From Trueperaceae bacterium (lineage in GTDB: Bacteria; Deinococcota; Deinococci; Deinococcales; Trueperaceae), in assembly GCA_965213705.1 (NCBI GenBank), contig OZ243913.1, forward strand, positions 2,688,001-2,752,000: 64,000 nucleotides of DNA, read 5' to 3'. Shown here piece after piece: positions 5,552 to 14,619 of this stretch. The translations under genes and the position numbers were made by a program. Within the stretch, counting starts at the first letter, position 1. Each line of letters begins with the position of its first letter. Below the pieces are notes generated by a model. It was not told the DNA's origin, did not search any database, and saw only the letters and a list, made by a program, of their open reading frames with translations.

Positions 5552-7255
5552 GTGAAAAAACTCAGTCTGGCTTTGCTTATGCTCGGTCTGCTCGTCGGCA
5601 CCGCCTCGGCGCAGCGCGGCGTCGAGGGCGACCTCGACATCATCTACTGGCAAGCCCCCTCGACGCTCAACCCCTACCTGTCGGGCGGCACCAAGGACAT
5701 CGAGGCGGCTTCGCCCATCCTGGAACCGTTGGCGCGCTACGACGAGGCCGGCAACTTGGTGCCGTGGCTCGTCGACGAAATTCCGACCGTGGAGAACGGC
5801 GGCGTCGCCGAGGACTTGAGGAGCATCACCTGGACGCTTAAAGACGGCATCATGTGGTCGGACGGCACGCCGCTGACCGCTGAAGACGTGGTCTTTACCG
5901 GCAACTACTGCCTCAACGAAGAGATGGGCTGCAACTCGCTCTCGTACTTTACCGACGTCGACAGCTTCGAAGCGGTCGACGACCAGACGGTTCGAATCAA
6001 CTTCTCGGTCGCCAAGCCTTTCCCTTACGGCCCCTTTGCCGGCGCGGAAACGCCCATCCTTCAAAAAGCGCAGTTTGAAAACTGCACGGGTGCGGCGGCG
6101 CAGAACTGCACGGCTGAGAACTTCGGCCCCGTCGGCACCGGCCCCTACAAGGTAGTCGACTTCCGCGCCAACGACGTGGTCGTCTACGAACCCAACGAGA
6201 ACTACCGCGAGGCCGACAAGCCCGCGTTTTCGCGCGTGACCCTCAAAGGCGGCGGCGACGCGGCTTCGGCGGCGCGCGCGGTGCTCGAGACCGGCGAGGC
6301 CGACTACGCCTGGAACTTGCAAGTCGAGCCCGAAATCTTGACCCAGATGGAAGCGGGCGGCCAGGGCGAGGTCGTCAGCTCGTTCGGCACCTCGGTCGAG
6401 CGTCTCGTCATCAACCTCACCAACCCCGACGCCTCGCTGGGCGAAAACCGCTCCGAGTACATGGGTGGCGAAAACCCGCACCCCTTCTTGAGCGACCCGG
6501 TGGTGCGTCAAGCGCTGTCGATGGCGATTGACCGCTCGATACTCACCGAAATCGGTTACGGCGCGGCGGGTCAGCCCGGTTGCAACATTTTGCCCGCCCC
6601 GGAAATCTACGCCTCGACCGCCAACGACGCTTGTCTGCAGCAGGACATGGAAGGCGCGAAGAAGCTCCTCGACGACGCGGGCATCGTCGACACCGACGGC
6701 GACGGCGTGCGTGAAAAAGACGGCGTACCCTTGAGGATTCTTTACCAGACCTCGACCAACTCGGTGCGCCAGGGCACGCAAGCGCTCGTCAAGCAGTGGT
6801 GGGACGAACTCGGCGTCGAGACCGAGCTGCGCAACATCGACGCGGCCGTCTTTTTCGGCAACGACATCTCGAGCCCGGACACCTACGGCAAGTTCTACGC
6901 CGACGTGGAGATGTTCACCAACAACTTCTCGGGCACCGACCCCGAAAACTACATGGCGAACCTGACCTGCAAAGAAATTGCGCAACGCTCAAACCAGTGG
7001 CTCGGCAACAACCAGCCGCGCTGGTGCAACCCCGAATACGACGCGCTCGTGGCGCAACTCGGCGAGACCGCCGGATTGGAAGCTCGAGCCGAAATCGCCA
7101 AGCAACTCAACGACATGATTTCGCAAAACTACGTGCTCATCCCGCTCATTTGGCGCGGCGACGTGTCCGCGCACGCGGACTCGCTTGAGGGCGTCCGCAT
7201 GAACAGCTGGGACTCGGAACTCTGGAACATCGCCGACTGGACCAGGACCAACTAG
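5552..7255 (+). CDS. Peptide ABC transporter substrate-binding protein (family 5)
   Basis: Signal peptide; 'WSDGTPLTAEDV', 'GTGPYKV' motifs. Confidence 0.9.
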   Translation: MKKLSLALLMLGLLVGTASAQRGVEGDLDIIYWQAPSTLNPYLSGGTKDIEAASPILEPLARYDEAGNLVPWLVDEIPTVENGGVAEDLRSITWTLKDGIMWSDGTPLTAEDVVFTGNYCLNEEMGCNSLSYFTDVDSFEAVDDQTVRINFSVAKPFPYGPFAGAETPILQKAQFENCTGAAAQNCTAENFGPVGTGPYKVVDFRANDVVVYEPNENYREADKPAFSRVTLKGGGDAASAARAVLETGEADYAWNLQVEPEILTQMEAGGQGEVVSSFGTSVERLVINLTNPDASLGENRSEYMGGENPHPFLSDPVVRQALSMAIDRSILTEIGYGAAGQPGCNILPAPEIYASTANDACLQQDMEGAKKLLDDAGIVDTDGDGVREKDGVPLRILYQTSTNSVRQGTQALVKQWWDELGVETELRNIDAAVFFGNDISSPDTYGKFYADVEMFTNNFSGTDPENYMANLTCKEIAQRSNQWLGNNQPRWCNPEYDALVAQLGETAGLEARAEIAKQLNDMISQNYVLIPLIWRGDVSAHADSLEGVRMNSWDSELWNIADWTRTN

Positions 7256-7275
7256 GCAAGTCGCCCGTTCCAAAC

Positions 7276-7308
7276 AAAGTGGTTTGCGTGTCAAACGCAA
7301 ACCACTTT
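7276..7308 (+). terminator. Strong hairpin between the substrate-binding gene and the permease (terminator or mRNA stabiliser)
   Basis: AAAGTGGTTTGCGT-N5-ACGCAAACCACTTT, perfect 14-bp stem. Confidence 0.65.
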
Positions 7309-7339
7309 CTCTTAAATTCCTTATTTTAAGGACAGCCAC

Positions 7340-8353
7340 ATGTTTCAATACATCATACGCCGAGTTTTGGTCGCTATACCGACGCTTCTAGTTATCAGCG
7401 TGGTCATTTTTGGCATTTTGGAACTCGCCCCTGGCGACCCGACCGGCACCCTGCCCCTCACCATCCCACCCGAGGTGCGCGAGCAAATCAAAGAAGCGCT
7501 CGGGGCGAACGACAAGTTCCCGGTGAACTATCTCAAGTGGGCGCGCCAATTTTTCGTCTACGAACCGCTGGCGATGTTTCAAGACGCGACGGGCATAGAG
7601 GTCGGCGACAGCAGCCAGCGCACCCGCATCTTGTCCTGGACGACGCGCAGCCCGGTGATGGACCTTATCATCCAGCGTTTGCCGCAAACCTTGTGGGTCG
7701 TAGGTCTGGCCTACGTCGTCGGTATCCTGATAGCGATTCCAGTCGGTATTTTGTCGGCCTACAAGCAGTACTCCATTTTCGACCAGGTCGGCACGTTCGT
7801 GTCGCTCATCGGCTTTTCGGTGCCGACTTTTTTCACCGGGCTCGTCGCCATCATCATTTTCAGCGTCAACCTGAGGTGGTTTCCGTCGATTTACGACACC
7901 ACCCTCGTCGTGAACGACTGGCCCAGCTTCGTCGAGCAAGTCAAACAGATGATCATGCCGGTGATGGTGTTAGCTTTTTTCAACGCTTCGCAGCTCAGCC
8001 GCTTTATGCGCAGTTCGATGCTCGACAACCTCAACCAGGACTATGTTCGCACCGCCCGCTCAAAAGGCCTGAAGGAGCAAATCGTGGTGCTCGGCCACGT
8101 GCTGCGCAACAGTCTCATCCCGGTCGTCACTTTAATCGCGCTGGGCATCCCAGGGATTTTTGGGGGCGCCATCATCACCGAGCAGATTTTTCGCATCAAC
8201 GGCTTGGGCGCGCTGCTGATAGAGGGAATTCAGAGCGCCGACATCCCGCGGGTGCAAACCCTGACTTTCATCTTCGCCATTCTCATCGTCCTGTTCAACA
8301 TCGTCGCGGACGTGGCTTACGGCTTTCTCGACCCACGGATTCGGTACGGGTAG
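7340..8353 (+). CDS. Peptide ABC transporter permease (OppB/DppB-like)
   Basis: 'DYVRTARSKGL', 'LDPRIR' motifs. Confidence 0.9.
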   Translation: MFQYIIRRVLVAIPTLLVISVVIFGILELAPGDPTGTLPLTIPPEVREQIKEALGANDKFPVNYLKWARQFFVYEPLAMFQDATGIEVGDSSQRTRILSWTTRSPVMDLIIQRLPQTLWVVGLAYVVGILIAIPVGILSAYKQYSIFDQVGTFVSLIGFSVPTFFTGLVAIIIFSVNLRWFPSIYDTTLVVNDWPSFVEQVKQMIMPVMVLAFFNASQLSRFMRSSMLDNLNQDYVRTARSKGLKEQIVVLGHVLRNSLIPVVTLIALGIPGIFGGAIITEQIFRINGLGALLIEGIQSADIPRVQTLTFIFAILIVLFNIVADVAYGFLDPRIRYG

Positions 8354-8362
8354 GGGGTCGGT

Positions 8363-9280
8363 GTGAGCGTTGCAACCGCGCCCAAAACCGCCGCCAAGGC
8401 CGACCGTTCGCCGTGGCTGGACGGTTGGCGGCAGTTCGCCAAGCACAAAGGGGCGGTCGTCGGCATGGTCATTTTTTTCGCCATCGTGCTGACCGTTATT
8501 TTCGGGCCGCTGGTCTACCCCGTCGACCCGCAGTACAGCAACTTGTTGGAGCGCAACCAGGGTCCGTCGGGCAAGCACTTTTTCGGCACCGACAACTTGG
8601 GCCGCGACCTGTTCGCCGCCAACTTAGCGGGCGGGCGCATCTCGCTCGCGGTCGGCGTGGCGTCGATGCTCATCAGCATCGTGCTGGGCACGACCATCGG
8701 GCTGTTAGCGGGCTATTTCAGGTGGCTCGACGGCGCACTCATGCGGTTCACCGACCTGTTTTTGGCGCTGCCGCTACTGCCGCTTTTGCTCGTCATCATC
8801 TTGCTGTTCCGGGACAGCCTGCGCGCGGCCTTTGGGCCGGAGCTGGGTATTTTCATCTTAATCGTCACGGTTATCGGGGCGACGAGCTGGATGAACACGG
8901 CGCGGGTCGTCCGGGGCGACGTGTTGGGCGTCAAAGAGCGCGAGTTCGTGTCGGCGGCGGGCGCGTTGGGCTCGGGCAACAACCGAATTATGTGGCTGCA
9001 CATCCTGCCCAACGTGCTGAGCCCGATTCTGGTCTCGGCGACGCTCGGCATGGCGAACGCGATTATCACCGAGTCGGCACTGTCGTTTTTGGGCCTCGGC
9101 TTTCCGCCCGACTTTCCCACCTGGGGCCGGCTGCTGTTCGACGGCAAGGACTTTTTAAGCCTTACCCCGATGCGGGTCGTGTGGCCGGGCTTGGCGATTT
9201 CGCTCGTCGTCTTGAGCGTGAACTTTATGGGCGACGGTCTGCGCGACGCGCTCGACCCGCGGTTGCGGGGGCGGGGCTGA
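8363..9280 (+). CDS. Peptide ABC transporter permease (OppC/DppC-like)
   Basis: 'FGTDNLGRD', 'HILPN', 'GDGLRDALDPR' motifs. Confidence 0.9.
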   Translation: MSVATAPKTAAKADRSPWLDGWRQFAKHKGAVVGMVIFFAIVLTVIFGPLVYPVDPQYSNLLERNQGPSGKHFFGTDNLGRDLFAANLAGGRISLAVGVASMLISIVLGTTIGLLAGYFRWLDGALMRFTDLFLALPLLPLLLVIILLFRDSLRAAFGPELGIFILIVTVIGATSWMNTARVVRGDVLGVKEREFVSAAGALGSGNNRIMWLHILPNVLSPILVSATLGMANAIITESALSFLGLGFPPDFPTWGRLLFDGKDFLSLTPMRVVWPGLAISLVVLSVNFMGDGLRDALDPRLRGRG

Positions 9281-9299
9281 GAGTAGTTCTTTTTTGCTA

Positions 9300-9352
9300 T
9301 CAAGTTTTGCTGGGTCAAGTTTTGTCGGGTCAAGTTTCGTTGGGTCGAATTG
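9300..9352. repeat. 15-bp degenerate tandem repeat (about 3.5 units)
   Basis: TCAAGTTTTGCTGGG / TCAAGTTTTGTCGGG / TCAAGTTTCGTTGGG / TCGAATTG. Confidence 0.75.
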
Positions 9353-9703
9353 AAGAGCGACGATTACAGGTCGTGTAGGTGCTCGGTACTGACGAAGCAC
9401 TCGACTGACGTTTGTCCTGTGGACCCGGCAACATCCAATTTTGCACGAACGGTGTACCACCCCTTTTAGAGAAACTTTTCAACCCTTGTTTCTCGAGACT
9501 TTCCTCAACCGGAAGGTCGACCCCAATCGGCTCAGCGCCGCCCCAGCTCGACCCACCCCCTCTAGTAGGCGCTGAGCCCACAAGCAGGAGACGACCCCAG
9601 CGGCTCGTCTCCTGCTTTCGTGTGATGTCGTGTCACGACGGGGTTTCCAAAGCCGGCTCGAGCCCGGAACTTAGCGGTTGGGGTTCGTGTCATACTTGAC
9701 TCC

Positions 9704-10744
9704 ATGAAGCTACGCCTTACCCTATGGGCGCTGGTCTGTTTGCTGCTCAGCGCCGGCGCCTCGGCCCAATACTACTTGGGCAGCGTGGGTGAGCGGCCGG
9801 CTCAGCTCGAGCTGAACTTGCCGGACACGCCCACAACACCCACCGCCAATTCCCTGACCGGCTCGTTTTACTACGACGCCGTCGGGCTGCCCCTTGACTT
9901 AGAGGGGCGGCTGACGAACACGGGCGAAGTGCGGCTCGAGGCCTACACCCAAGCCGTCACCACCTTGGGGCGGCAGCAAACGGGCGTGCTCGAGGGAACG
10001 CTGGCAGAGGGAACGTTGCCAGAGGGAATATTGCTGGGCGAAGCGAACCCCGGCGAGCGTTTCTCGGGCGTGTGGCGCTCGGCTTCCGGCGCCGCTTTGC
10101 CCTTCAGCTTCGACAAAATAGCGGAGTACGCCGACGTCGTTTTCGAGCAAGGACGAATTACCGCCGCGGCCAGCTACCCGGTTTTCTCTACACCCTTCAA
10201 CACCCTCGACACGCGGCTGCAGAGCGACCTTATCAACTCGCTTTTCGACTTTGTGCAGGAGGGGCAAGAGGTGAGGTCGGCCGGCGAACTGTTCGGCGGC
10301 TGGAGCCTGGAGCGCCGCCAAACCATCACCTACGCGTCGGCGAGCTTAGCGAGTATCGCCGAAACGCTGTACGTGTACACGGGCGGCGCGCACCCGAATA
10401 CCGGCTTAGCGAGTTATGTCCTTTTCACAGAGGCCGGCCGAACGCGCCTTCTCAGTTTGGCCGACTTTTTTTTGCCCGGGGTCGACTACCTGGCGTTGTT
10501 GTCGCCCTACCTCGTAAGCGCCTTGCTCGAGCAGGGTGCCCAGTGGGTGGTGGACGGTTCGGTCGACGGGTTTACCAAGGACGACTTAAGCGTCGTCACG
10601 GTCTCCCCCACCGGCTTGCGCTTCGGCTTCGAGCCCTACGCGGTCGGGCCGTACGCGCAGGGCACGTTTTTCGTCACGGTGCCGTTCGATGTTCTCGAGC
10701 CGGTCATCGACCCGGCGGGGCCGTTGCAGGCGTTTGTGGAGTGA
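9704..10744 (+). CDS. Secreted RsiV/DUF3298-like protein
   Basis: Signal peptide; 'YTGGAHPN' and 'FEPYAVGPYAQG' motifs. Confidence 0.75.
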   Translation: MKLRLTLWALVCLLLSAGASAQYYLGSVGERPAQLELNLPDTPTTPTANSLTGSFYYDAVGLPLDLEGRLTNTGEVRLEAYTQAVTTLGRQQTGVLEGTLAEGTLPEGILLGEANPGERFSGVWRSASGAALPFSFDKIAEYADVVFEQGRITAAASYPVFSTPFNTLDTRLQSDLINSLFDFVQEGQEVRSAGELFGGWSLERRQTITYASASLASIAETLYVYTGGAHPNTGLASYVLFTEAGRTRLLSLADFFLPGVDYLALLSPYLVSALLEQGAQWVVDGSVDGFTKDDLSVVTVSPTGLRFGFEPYAVGPYAQGTFFVTVPFDVLEPVIDPAGPLQAFVE

Positions 10745-10804
10745 AGACGGGCGCCGCTCGGCTTTGAACGGGGCTCGAAAGCTTCTTTAGTGGTTGAGGG
10801 AGCA

Positions 10805-11101
10805 ATGGACCATTTTGAAATTTCTCTGCCGCCCGGTACGGACGCCAAAGTTCTCGAGCGCCTCATCGACGAAACTTTGGAGCAAAGCGGTTTGAACGTC
10901 ACGCTGCGCGACACCCTCAAACAGTACTCGGGCTGCGTTCACTGGCACCTCAAACAGGGGCGGCAGTCGGGAACCCTGGAACTGACGCTGTGGCCCCGAG
11001 AACACCGCCTCTGGTTTTCGGTTCACAGAAACCGTACCGCTCCGTGGCTCGAAGAGGAAAGAAAGCGCCTCCACGCCGTTTTACTGGGCCGTTTGACTTG
11101 A
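10805..11101 (+). CDS. Hypothetical protein
   Basis: GAGGGAG RBS, protein-like composition. Confidence 0.55.
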   Translation: MDHFEISLPPGTDAKVLERLIDETLEQSGLNVTLRDTLKQYSGCVHWHLKQGRQSGTLELTLWPREHRLWFSVHRNRTAPWLEEERKRLHAVLLGRLT

Positions 11102-11229
11102 GTCGAACTGCAGTTTTGAGTCGACAAGTTTTTCAAAGTCTCAGCCGAGCCCTCGGCGTGTGGCAAAATGGCTCGAGTATGAGTTGAAAATTCTTTGAAG
11201 CCGTTACAGCATTTTTAGAGGAGAGTTTG

Positions 11230-11685
11230 ATGAAACTAGCCGAAGCCCTGATGGAGCGTGCGGACAGAAACCGCCGACTTCAGGAACTCCGTGAACGAAT
11301 TGTTCGCAACGCTCAGTACCAAGAAGGCGAAACGCCGGCCGAAGACCCGAACGAACTTCTTGAAGAGCACCAAGCTGCTTCTTTGGACTTCGAGCGTTTG
11401 ATTGTTCGCATCAACACCACCAACAACCAAGTGACTTTAGAAGACGGGAGGTCGATGGTCGAGGCACTTGCCCACCGGGACGTTATGAAGTTGAGACACG
11501 CGTTGTACAAGGCGCTCGCAGCCGCAGCCACGCCCCAACAAGACAGGTACAGCAAAAAAGAAATCAAGTTTATAGGTGCGGTCGACGTGAAAGAAATCCA
11601 GCGAGAGGCAGACCGACTCGCTAAAGAATATCGTGAACTCGATGCTCTCATTCAGCAAGCGAACTGGAACAACGACCTTCTTTAA
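11230..11685 (+). CDS. DIP1984-like (so-called septicolysin-like) helical protein
   Basis: 151 aa; 'MKLAEAL..RAD', 'QEGETPAEDP', 'RINTTN', 'RYSKKEIK', 'LDALIQQANW' pattern recalled for the family; GAGGAG RBS. Confidence 0.8.
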   Translation: MKLAEALMERADRNRRLQELRERIVRNAQYQEGETPAEDPNELLEEHQAASLDFERLIVRINTTNNQVTLEDGRSMVEALAHRDVMKLRHALYKALAAAATPQQDRYSKKEIKFIGAVDVKEIQREADRLAKEYRELDALIQQANWNNDLL

Positions 11686-11893
11686 GTCAGGTTTGGTAGC
11701 TTTCAGCAAGAAGCGAACACAACCCGCCAACTGGGTCAAGTTGGATACTGGTTTGAGTGAAGGGCAGCTCCGTGGGTTCGACTCCCAAAGCCACAGCTTA
11801 GCTCAGTACTGTTACAAGCGTAAAGCGTACCGTGTACGGTTACTACCGTGTGTTGATTTTGTTGAAGGTGAGGGTGGGTAAGGGGAACCTGAC
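11686..11893 (+). ncRNA. Candidate structured RNA directly downstream of the DIP1984-like gene
   Basis: Closing stem 11686-94/11885-93, 13-bp stem 11699-711/11857-69 with G-U pairs, internal hairpins, T-loop GGGTTCGACTCCC. Confidence 0.65.
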
Positions 11894-11941
11894 GATAGCG
11901 CTGAAGGAGTACTGAAAAAGCAGTCTCGAGAGGTGAAAAGT

Positions 11942-13837
11942 ATGCCAACCGAACAAGCCGAACATACCGAATTCAAAGCTGAAATCAAACAAGTTTTGGA
12001 CATCCTCATCCACTCGCTTTACACCGAAAAAGAAATTTTCCTGCGCGAACTCGTCTCGAACGCGTCGGACGCGCTGCACCGGCTCAAGCTCGAGAGCCTG
12101 AAAAGCCAGGACATGGTGAGTCCGGGGGCCGAACTGGGGATTTGGCTGGAGGGTGACCCGCAAACCGGCACCCTCACGGTGCGCGACAGCGGCGTCGGCT
12201 TGTCCCAAGAAGAGATGGGGCGCTACCTGGGCACCATCGCGAGTTCGGGGGCGAAACAGTTTATCGAGACGATGAAAAGTCTCAACCAGGGCGACACCAA
12301 AACGACCGCCGACGTCATCGGGCAGTTCGGGGTGGGTTTTTACTCGGTGTTCATGGTCGCCGACGAAGTCACGGTGACCTCACGCTCTTACAAGCCCGAC
12401 GCCGAGGCGGCCTACTGGCGCTCGACGGGCGAGGGTACTTATCAAACGGGTCCGGCCGACAAGGACGAGCGCGGCACGACTGTCACCCTCAAGCTCAAGG
12501 ACGATGCTAAAGAGTTCGCCGAGGCGTACCGGTTGCGGCAAATCGTCAAGGAGCATTCCAACTTCGTCGCGTTTCCCGTCTACCTAAAAGAAAAGGGCGA
12601 ATGGCAGCAAATTAACGAGCGCACCGCGCTGTGGCGCGAATCCCCGCAGGGGGTCGAGGTGGACAAGTACCGGCGCTTTTACCAGGAACTCACCTTCGAC
12701 CCTCGAGAGCCGTTGCGCACGATTCACTTTACGACCGACATGCCGATTCAGTTTTACGCGCTGCTGTTCGTCCCGTCGCGCCGCGACCACAAGCTGTTTA
12801 CCAACGCCGACGACTACGGCCTCAAGCTGTACGCGCGCAAAGTCCTGATTCAAGACGAGTTCAAGGCGTTGCTGCCGCCCTACCTGCGCTTTTTAGAGGG
12901 CGTCGTGGACTCCGAGGACCTGCCGCTGAACGTCTCGCGCGAAACCGTCCAGGCGACGCCGACGGTGGCGCGGATTCGCAAGGTATTGGTTGGGCGCGTC
13001 GCCAGCGACTTGGAGCGCATGGCCGAGCACGAGCCCGAGCAGTTTGAAACGTTTTACAAAGAGTTCGGCACGTTTCTTAAAGAGGGCGTCGCCAGCGACC
13101 CTGGCAGCGCCGAAAGATTCATCGGCCTGCTGCGTTTTCCCTCGACAAAAACTGAGGGCGACGCGTTGACCTCGCTCGAGGCCTACGTTGAACGCGTGAA
13201 GCCCGAGCAGAAAGAAATCTACTACGTGTTGGGCGACGACCTGGCAACCGTGGCGCGGAGTTCTCACCTAGAGTATTTCCGCAAGCACGACCTGGAAGTC
13301 CTCTACCTCACCGACCCCGTCGACAGCTTTATGCTTGTGGGCTTGAACGAGTACGGCGGCAAGGCGCTCAAAAACATCGACGACGCCGACCTGGACCTGC
13401 CCGCAACCGACGAGAAAAAGCTCGAGCTTCCCAAAGACGAACGCTTTATCGCGCTGAGCGCTTTTGTCAAACAAACTTTGGGCGACCGCGTGGAGGCGGT
13501 ACGGGAGAGCAAAGTCCTGACCGACGCCGCGGCGCGGCTGGTCAACCCCCCGAACGCCGGCCCGACCAGCTTTTACCGCGCCCAGCGCATGATGGGCCGC
13601 GACTTCGAGGTGCCGAAGAAAATTCTCGAGCTCAACCCGAAAAGCCCACTCGTCAAGGCTTTGGGCGAACGCTTGAGGGCAAACGACAAAGACCCGCTGT
13701 TGCCGGTCTTAATCGAGCAAGTATACGAGAACGAACTGCTCATGGAAGGCGGCCACCCCAACCCCGCCGAGATGGTTCCGCGCATCCAAAAGCTCATGGC
13801 GGCGGTTGCCGAACCCGACGGACAAGAGCGAAACTGA
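11942..13837 (+). CDS. htpG: Molecular chaperone HtpG (Hsp90)
   Basis: 'KEIFLRELVSNASDA', 'IGQFGVGFYS', 'DSEDLPLNVSRE'. Confidence 0.97.
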   Translation: MPTEQAEHTEFKAEIKQVLDILIHSLYTEKEIFLRELVSNASDALHRLKLESLKSQDMVSPGAELGIWLEGDPQTGTLTVRDSGVGLSQEEMGRYLGTIASSGAKQFIETMKSLNQGDTKTTADVIGQFGVGFYSVFMVADEVTVTSRSYKPDAEAAYWRSTGEGTYQTGPADKDERGTTVTLKLKDDAKEFAEAYRLRQIVKEHSNFVAFPVYLKEKGEWQQINERTALWRESPQGVEVDKYRRFYQELTFDPREPLRTIHFTTDMPIQFYALLFVPSRRDHKLFTNADDYGLKLYARKVLIQDEFKALLPPYLRFLEGVVDSEDLPLNVSRETVQATPTVARIRKVLVGRVASDLERMAEHEPEQFETFYKEFGTFLKEGVASDPGSAERFIGLLRFPSTKTEGDALTSLEAYVERVKPEQKEIYYVLGDDLATVARSSHLEYFRKHDLEVLYLTDPVDSFMLVGLNEYGGKALKNIDDADLDLPATDEKKLELPKDERFIALSAFVKQTLGDRVEAVRESKVLTDAAARLVNPPNAGPTSFYRAQRMMGRDFEVPKKILELNPKSPLVKALGERLRANDKDPLLPVLIEQVYENELLMEGGHPNPAEMVPRIQKLMAAVAEPDGQERN

Positions 13838-14226: not shown

Positions 14227-14619
14227 TTAGTAGCGGTCGCGGCCACCCCCGCCACGGCCACCCCCGCCGCCCCGGCCGCCCTGGTCACCACCACGGTCGC
14301 CACCACCACGGCCACCGCCGCCGTAGCCGCCGTTTCTACCGCCGCCAGTTCCGCCGCCACCGCCACCCCGACCGCCCCCGAAGTCACCACGGCCCCGGTC
14401 GCTTACCGGCGCAGCGTTCGTTACCTTAACGTCGGCGGCTTGCAAGCCCTTCTGGCCCTGCTCGGTACGGTACTCGACTTCGTCGCCTTCGTTCAGGTTT
14501 TTAAAACCGCTGCCTTGGATGGCCGAGAAGTGCACGAACACGTCTGCGCCGCCGTCGTCCTGCTGAATGAAACCAAAACCTTTTTCGCCGTTGAACCACT
14601 TTACTTTGCCTGTCGGCAT
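14227..14619 (-). CDS. Cold-shock domain protein with Gly/Arg-rich (RGG) tail
   Basis: '[15 protein letters not shown]', 'DVFVHFSAI' followed by about 55 aa of Gly/Arg-rich sequence. Confidence 0.93.

Follow-up and report, generated by a model that had tools for sequence, protein, structure and literature searches.

The gene for a DIP1984-family (DUF6847) protein and the structured RNA that follows it form one two-part unit, as is shown by a linkage that is found in both search directions, and this RNA-protein unit is real, widespread (it spans at least ten phyla) and, as far as we have searched, undescribed in print. We propose, with a probability of roughly 0.75, that the gene and its RNA make a dedicated RNA-protein particle. 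The original prediction for this DNA had proposed such a protein-RNA partnership, to which the two-way linkage and a discrete, abundant transcript in a relative now lend support, and in which the physical binding is still something we infer. Few conserved bacterial non-coding RNAs have a dedicated protein of their own, and the unit provides a first lead for a structural-genomics protein (PDB 3kdq) that has been without a function since 2009. In addition, the RNA is abundant in a cultured organism of the Deinococcus family, which makes the proposal directly testable, and the unit rides on hundreds of Acinetobacter plasmids, where its gene is listed only as a hypothetical protein. The one paper found to name DIP1984 calls it a hypothetical plasmid protein (PMC10889530).

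The window, that is, the whole 64,000-nucleotide stretch of Trueperaceae DNA that was analysed, contains the following features of the unit.

11220 to 11223, plus strand: GGAG, ribosome site of the DIP1984-family gene, from the sequence
11230 to 11685, plus strand: DIP1984-family (DUF6847) gene; 151-aa, all-helical product that matches NF038048, PF20935 and 3kdq
11686 to 11893, plus strand: conserved structured RNA of the tailed class, 208 nt, beginning at the base after the stop codon
11686 to 11694, plus strand: 5' strand of P1; its pairing with 11885-11893 brings both ends of the RNA close to each other
11695 to 11698, plus strand: GGUA, 5' half of the terminal module; UA lies opposite GA 11870-71, and GG is a candidate fourth G-tract
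11699 to 11711, plus strand: 5' strand of P2, pairs with 11857-11869; closed by the internal loop AGCG 11712-15 / GA 11855-56
11716 to 11720, plus strand: 5' strand of P3, pairs with 11850-11854 and closes the core
11722 to 11744, plus strand: pseudoknot 1 (H-type), ACCC 11722-25 / GGGU 11733-36 crossed by CCAACU 11727-32 / AGUUGG 11739-44
11755 to 11770, plus strand: P5 hairpin GAGU/GCUC, whose loop GGGC 11762-65 pairs with GCUC 11801-04 to make pseudoknot 2
11773 to 11787, plus strand: optional tRNA-type T-arm with UUCGACU loop, present in 82 of 168 RNAs
11792 to 11847, plus strand: eight YA(Y) motifs about 7 nt apart (11792, 11799, 11807, 11813, 11821, 11828, 11835, 11841), candidate protein-binding track
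11845 to 11847, plus strand: near-invariant ACC that ends the YA(Y) tract, from RNA comparison
11870 to 11885, plus strand: G-tract tail GAGGGUGGG-UAA-GGGG, 3' half of the terminal module, candidate G-quadruplex

The product of the 11230-11685 ORF is a plain member of the DIP1984/DUF6847 family, as the original prediction had called it. It scores above the curated cut-offs of NF038048 (E 5.5e-57, 192 bits against a cut-off of 70) and PF20935 (DUF6847; E 3.6e-54, 183 against 27), and has the fold of 3kdq, which it matches both in sequence search (E 2.9e-32) and in fold comparison (Z 15.5, rmsd 2.2 over 151 residues, TM-score 0.91). The literature that we found describes neither a function nor an RNA for this family, and none of the papers listed by one of the literature searches contains DUF6847, PF20935 or 3KDQ. 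In fold searches 3kdq, itself of unknown function, was the sole clear structural relative; helical matches at Z 8-9.5 (ESCRT-III, PspA, IS110 and TasH coiled coils) were set aside as generic. These searches found no nuclease or other toxin fold, such generic matches being unable to exclude a family, and neither PADLOC nor Pfam gave a toxin match. Among 136 cluster representatives, R10, R23, Q31, N62, N65, R83, R106, E111, R135, Q142, N145 and W146 are kept in 91-100%, and these near-invariant residues include no conserved histidine. Residues 101-120 have the lowest model confidence in the predicted structure. A search of the ESM Atlas returned unnamed clusters only, the 16 longer homologues that were scanned contained no informative fusion, and one DHFR-domain fusion occurred among 8000 candidates scored. 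Protein search found no DIP1984 relatives in viral contigs, and the RNA pattern was present in one viral locus.

Evidence for structure in the RNA rests on its homologues, because the single-sequence fold of the 208-nt RNA is no better than chance (z -0.19, equalled by 82 of 200 shuffles); the other strand also gives no signal (z -0.68). The same element lies behind 30 Deinococcota DIP1984 homologues and behind 80 homologues from other phyla (Pseudomonadota, Bacillota, Actinomycetota, Acidobacteriota, Chloroflexota, Planctomycetota, Cyanobacteriota, Bacteroidota and others), and conserved, strongly covarying structure was found there, a check that the original prediction had set for itself. 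When 51 hand-picked full-length RNAs were aligned, 80.7% of cells were paired, compared with 66.4% in shuffles, and two-sided changes occurred at 29 of 31 pairs. A further 78 RNAs, found independently by pattern scan and aligned to the model, so that their alignment leans towards it, were 86.8% paired, a value reached by 0 of 500 shuffles. Model R1, whose training set included the RNA of the window, scores it at 150 bits (11685-11895) and finds no other strong copy in this Trueperaceae genome.

This RNA matches no described family in Rfam 15: no match was seen at E<=10 in the window, at gathering score in 20 loci or at E<=1 in 14 loci. ARAGORN calls no tRNA or tmRNA at the locus, in agreement with the original view that it is not a tRNA; the alternative suggestion of a tRNA mimic retains the T-arm seen in about half of the RNAs and loses any tRNA call here. 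A separate T-box-like leader (63 bits, E 2e-11, below gathering score) lies upstream of the gene, on the other strand, in one locus (L085, 522-751, minus strand). We found no paper on the RNA, which may stand as an unnamed entry in the supplements of motif catalogues; part of the supplementary data of PMC8632094 holds no match to it. Two published candidates could not be tied to the RNA: dsr11, which adjoins a TetR gene (PMC7022480), and an Actinobacillus sRNA list, to which no link was found (PMC4986893).

From the outside in, the RNA consists of P1, an asymmetric GGUA / GAGGGYGGG-N3-GGGG loop, P2, a four-by-two loop (RGCG/GA) and P3, which encloses the core. P1 was found in 106 of 129 RNAs, compared with 31-51 when partners were mismatched. 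P2 is 97-98% paired with two-sided changes at all 6 counted pairs of the 51-RNA alignment, P3 is 98% paired with such changes at 5 of 5 pairs (and 98.7% paired in the 78-RNA set), and the top mutual-information pairs fall in P2, P3, P4 and pseudoknot 2. The original prediction had drawn P1, P2 with its four G-U pairs, AACAC/GTGTT (here P3), a CCAACT/AGTTGG hairpin and the T-arm; all lie where it placed them in the sequence and MFE fold, and homologues support the first four, the CCAACT hairpin being 86% paired in the 78 RNAs, while the T-arm proved real and optional. Three other elements did not survive comparison. A proposed pseudoknot, ACCCGCC/GGTGGGT, shows no covariation and its score is reached by 275 of 500 shuffles, its CYC/GGG core being able to pair in about 90% of sequences; and both a long arm (11746-58/11796-808) and an ACCG-TGTA-CGGT hairpin overlap the repeat tract, in which no consistent fold was found (median z -0.13 against shuffled sequence, 168 RNAs).

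Three features went unnoticed in that reading: two local pseudoknots, a set of motifs with a 7-nt period, and a G-tract module. Pseudoknot 1 can form in 134 of 168 RNAs, compared with 45-52 in shuffles, and its pairs exchange between CCC/GGG (36 times) and CTC/GAG (33 times). Pseudoknot 2 was found by strict search in 113 of 168 RNAs, compared with 12-17 in shuffles, with the exchanges GGGC/GCCC (85), GAGC/GCTC (18) and GGAC/GTCC (3), and its P5 element is 94% paired in the 78-RNA set. The YA(Y) motifs, aligned on the first peak over 157 RNAs, recur at 0, 6-7, 13-14, 19-21, 27-29, 34-35, 42-44 and 48-51 nt. In a subfamily of four loci (L066, L071, L073 and L074) the model did not find the P5/pseudoknot-2 region in its usual form, and the core is different and longer.

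The linkage between gene and RNA holds whichever of the two is used as the starting point. Starting from the protein, model R1 found the RNA in 76 of 79 loci (L032-L110), and in 31 of the 34 that had not been used to train it. It missed L032, L048 (a weak match, E 0.0014) and L065, in which the gene is followed by a run of N. Of three more loci, all actinobacterial, two have the RNA and one, L252, is without a clear one. Within the family of the window, 8 of 128 genomes carry the RNA, and these are the 8 in which a protein search that covered part of the 128 showed an intact DIP1984 gene. Starting from the RNA, 71 of 80 metagenome loci carry a DIP1984 gene directly upstream on the same strand, a count based on 80 of 120 motif loci that leaves out the 40 (L197-L236) with 300-nt flanks; the other 9 comprise 5 that are too short, 2 orphan RNAs, 1 fragment and 1 chance match. 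The orphans (L133, 1190-1405, minus strand, and L119, 1190-1397, minus strand) have no DIP1984 gene within 1.2 kb upstream; both RNAs are complete or almost so, and that of L133 looks intact. Two other arrangements were seen: a viral contig (L111) carries two diverged full RNA copies in tandem (1279-1550 and 1555-1769) behind one DIP1984 gene, and in L078 the first copy is followed, 1.3 kb downstream, by a second, hollow one (5785-5920) that keeps P2, P3 and a portion of the G-tail and has no core.

The terminal module divides the RNAs into two classes. A G-tail is present in 154 of 168 distinct RNAs, a set of which about half was selected on this tail; among the 154, exact GGTA occurs in 129 and GG is kept in about 145 (read by eye), so that in some 9 the tail stands without a 5' GG. 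Both GGUA and the tail are missing from 11 RNAs, and because they are lost together we regard them as one module. Leaving aside promoter and terminator look-alikes, three more RNAs of the Deinococcus family belong to the tail-less class, whose members come from Deinococcaceae, Bacteroidales, an acidimicrobium and Bipolaricaulota, as well as from Acinetobacter and Enterococcus plasmids. A DIP1984 protein tree made by a quick method spreads the losses over several branches. One tail-less locus (L112, 2501-3180, Acinetobacter plasmid NZ_CP026708) has the gene after a TonB receptor gene, followed by a tail-less, A/U-rich RNA that matches the model weakly (E 0.003) and in which P2, P3, pseudoknot 1 and ACC are visible. 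Judging by UniRef labels, the DIP1984 gene of the Acinetobacter plasmids is probably the one often labelled 'septicolysin'.

The GGUA / GAGGGYGGG-N3-GGGG module could be a G-quadruplex with one short tract, a reading from sequence to which we give even odds. It is suggested by G columns that are invariant or nearly so wherever the tail exists, by free loops (1-2, mostly 3 nt, variable in sequence and length), by tolerance of bulged tracts, by a middle Y without a covarying partner, and by two RNAs with four GGG tracts; tail conservation was taken from the protein-first alignment only, the other alignment having been selected on the tail. The two RNAs are sisters (L103 and L109) with a variant terminal module of four full GGG tracts and 1-nt loops. 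Quadruplexes of one G2 and three G3 tracts are known as G-vacancy structures in DNA, and quadruplexes embedded in aptamers are described in the same source (PMC7736831). Like Spinach, Mango and G-vacancy quadruplexes, the candidate module would combine one G2 with three G3 tracts, here between two helices; those are selected aptamers or DNA motifs, whereas the module would belong to a conserved natural RNA. Against the quadruplex stand the roughly 9 RNAs that have the tail but lack a 5' GG. If the module folds as read, it would be a phylogenetically conserved G-quadruplex inside a natural bacterial RNA.

In one Deinococcus-family relative, of the tail-less class, the RNA is shown to be a discrete, abundant, linear, sense-strand species. 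Three raw RNA-seq runs from one study covered a locus of the sister family (L237, genome G037), in which mean depth over the RNA was 1819, 2898 and 2039 and mean depth over the ORF was 29, 58 and 50, so that the RNA was covered 63, 50 and 41 times as deeply. The RNA reads lie on the same strand as the ORF and have sharp ends at 1486-87 and 1636-39, positions that are approximate in a random-primed library. This tail-less RNA looks linear: among 6535-10381 reads per run none joins the 3' end to the 5' end, and there is only an 8-read, 27-nt step back inside repeats. The stop codon is overlapped by a TTGACA, which a weak -10-like hexamer follows at a distance of 17 nt, and a terminator lies after the RNA; this arrangement suggests that the RNA has a separate promoter. 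The original prediction had named RNA-seq as a way to look for a discrete species, and for this one relative of the tail-less class that species was found.

We propose the following route to the particle. Much as HutP or TRAP does, an oligomer of the helical DIP1984 protein would bind the eight single-stranded YA(Y) motifs, each subunit taking roughly one, with contacts probably made by the invariant Arg/Gln/Asn residues and the flexible R106-E111 loop. In tailed RNAs, such as that of the window, the RNA may be cut out of the 3' UTR of the gene, and P1 with the G-tract module, probably a helix-embedded G-quadruplex, would protect or present the RNA ends; tail-less RNAs would instead start from a promoter located after the stop codon and end at a terminator. 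Both pseudoknots, and the T-arm where there is one, would stay exposed as a docking surface, and the particle would most likely act in RNA repair or quality control, as does Ro60 with Y RNA. That the RNA is a scaffold in the particle rather than an antitoxin is a reading that we favour slightly, and, given the particle, a role in RNA repair or quality control seems evenly balanced between right and wrong. Against the particle, the expression data come from one study of one organism with a tail-less RNA, most loci are without a repair gene, the RNAs of L133 and L119 lack a nearby gene, and the genes of L032, L048, L065 and L252 gave no clear RNA.

The comparison with trinucleotide-binding regulators is instructive. 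TRAP is an oligomeric protein that binds short, evenly spaced trinucleotide motifs. Likewise, HutP binds such motifs in the hut terminator RNA (PMC2425495), and the YA(Y) track is a likely site for an oligomeric protein of this kind. Unlike the HutP sites, the YA(Y) motifs sit within a closed RNA that follows the gene, no operon downstream is under their control, and the protein fold is unrelated. An attenuator of the HutP/TRAP type was rejected, the repeats lying inside P3 behind the gene and downstream genes not being conserved.

A role in repair is suggested by RNA-repair genes, which flank the unit in some eight groups of loci that are unrelated to one another; of 314 neighbour ORFs, 15 encode an RNA ligase, Hen1 or a TROVE-like protein, and most loci have no repair gene alongside. 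By our own estimate, made with no matched background, such genes amount to about 1 in 1000 genes or fewer. By tblastn, RtcB stands beside the unit in 9 loci of four groups, and a PF09414 RNA ligase right behind the RNA in 9 loci of one clade; Rnl1, Hen1 and a weak TROVE-like gene were each seen once, a group of DSP-type phosphatases was also present, and nearly all of these neighbours are on the same strand. These associations appear to be separate, because identity is only 21-29% among three of the RtcBs and, between groups, mostly 30-56% among the DIP1984 proteins that adjoin repair genes; the TROVE-like and PF09414 loci belong to one DIP1984 protein clade (78%). In L164 (1190-1424, minus strand), L143, L151, L173, L178, L182, L209, L224 and L233 the RNA is immediately followed by the ligase gene, in the same orientation, and the related L125 has a weak TROVE/Rsr-like gene (E 1e-6) in its place. 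No RtcB, Ro60 or tblastn match to the ligase queries occurs in the closed genome of the window (98% complete), and because RtcB and Ro60 are absent there, no repair enzyme is an obligatory part of the unit.

In its most specific and speculative form, which we think improbable, the proposal is a new bacterial RNA-repair particle: an octamer-like protein assembly would be wound by the eight YA(Y) motifs of the double-pseudoknot RNA, whose ends would be capped by a natural, helix-embedded G-quadruplex with one guanine vacancy. A guanine nucleotide or damaged guanine could fill this vacancy and so be sensed by the particle, which would pass broken RNA to whichever ligase of the RtcB, Rnl1 or Rnl2 type is present in the cell, and the tailed RNA may itself be closed into a circle.

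The strongest rival to the particle is an RNA antitoxin, as in a type III-like toxin-antitoxin or defence system, in which a harmful or abortive-infection protein would be held inactive by the abundant pseudoknotted RNA until that RNA decays and neighbouring ligases would repair the damage; we consider it unlikely. ToxIN, a type III toxin-antitoxin system, and AbiF with its RNA likewise pair one protein with one pseudoknotted RNA in excess and are patchy and plasmid-borne. In favour of this alternative, the RNA is in large excess over mRNA at the locus with expression data, intact genes nearly always keep it, orphan RNAs exist, and three gene fragments are without it. Distribution also points this way: the unit is patchy, occurring in 68 of 301 Deinococcota genomes and in 4 of 201 and 1 of 201 genomes of two other phyla (each of the latter two counts including the centre genome), and the gene is on 371 plasmid records, 342 of them from Acinetobacter. 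One plasmid copy lies among several toxin-antitoxin pairs, and PemK, MazE, PIN, Fic or restriction-modification genes are neighbours at single loci. However, the protein has no PADLOC match, no nuclease or toxin fold and only 3kdq as a clear relative, its near-invariant residues lack a histidine, and the RNA is one complex molecule behind the gene rather than an upstream array of short repeats; the lack of a recognised RNase fold and the single RNA set the unit apart from ToxIN and AbiF. In addition, the gene is found in 57 of 112 genomes of the sister family, which looks more like a kept function.

Another alternative to the particle, which we judge distinctly improbable, is that the RNA is a cis-acting 3' UTR element, decoy or sponge through which the protein sets only its own level while its real job lies elsewhere. 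The RNA is probably co-transcribed with the gene, as in 67 of 78 tailed loci the stop codon is followed by GGUA at a distance of 2-31 nt; the window region showed no sigma-70 promoter-like site. Against this, the RNA accumulates separately at 41-63 times the ORF in the relative, a TATACT/CACACT-like hexamer lies between stop codon and RNA in many Deinococcus-family copies, and two pseudoknots, a T-arm and a G-tract module exceed the needs of a simple binding site. Insertions of 80-460 nt between gene and RNA are also tolerated; those seen in L038, L039, L040, L057, L062, L063, L094 and L106, of roughly 100-460 nt, hold inverted repeats, with an ORF in L106. A terminator follows 24 of 151 tailed RNAs, compared with 4 of 139 control windows, in a scan that missed several tail-less terminators visible by eye and does not separate the classes cleanly.

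It is far less probable that the RNA is a divergent Y RNA working with Ro60. The Ro60 (Rsr)-Y RNA/YrlA system (PMC4201824) is likewise a non-coding RNA beside a dedicated same-strand protein gene, with a T-arm and RNA-repair genes nearby. The resemblance extends to the T-arm in 82 of 168 RNAs, to RtcB and one TROVE-like neighbour, to a GGCGAR loop resembling the YrlA motif, and to the presence of Ro60 in 5 of 8 RNA-bearing Trueperaceae genomes as against 7 of 120 others, a difference confounded by kinship and genome size. However, the motif GNCGAAN0-1G stands at the similar-looking loop in only 25 of 168 RNAs (the window has AGCGAA), Ro60 is missing from this genome and from 4 of 5 other carriers, and Rfam gives no Y RNA match. 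Y RNA and YrlA are recognised by a Ro60 gene within 4 kb on the same strand and a tRNA-like domain; this genome has no TROVE gene, a weak one (L125) is the only such neighbour among 314 ORFs, the P5 loop is engaged in pseudoknot 2, and no D-arm or acceptor domain is evident. The Y RNA partner is a TROVE ring, in contrast to a 151-aa helical protein, and the RNA has instead two pseudoknots, a repeat track and G-tracts.

Regulation of htpG or of whatever gene follows, by a thermometer or riboswitch, is refuted as a general function: the htpG start codon does lie at 11942, 48 nt after the RNA as the original prediction had measured, but only 3 of 236 loci have htpG next to the RNA, and these three belong to this genome or its genus; therefore the RNA is not an htpG regulator. 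The upstream and downstream neighbours of the unit are otherwise unrelated among loci, and downstream genes are often on the opposite strand. Two ORFs on the plus strand of the window are of note here. A 98-103-aa ORF upstream of the gene (10790-11101) has no Pfam, NCBIfam or PADLOC match and occurs, among the loci, only in this genome and genus. Further downstream, the ORF at 14227-14619 falls into no Pfam or NCBIfam family; it presumably resembles a cold-shock domain with a long Gly/Arg-rich tail.
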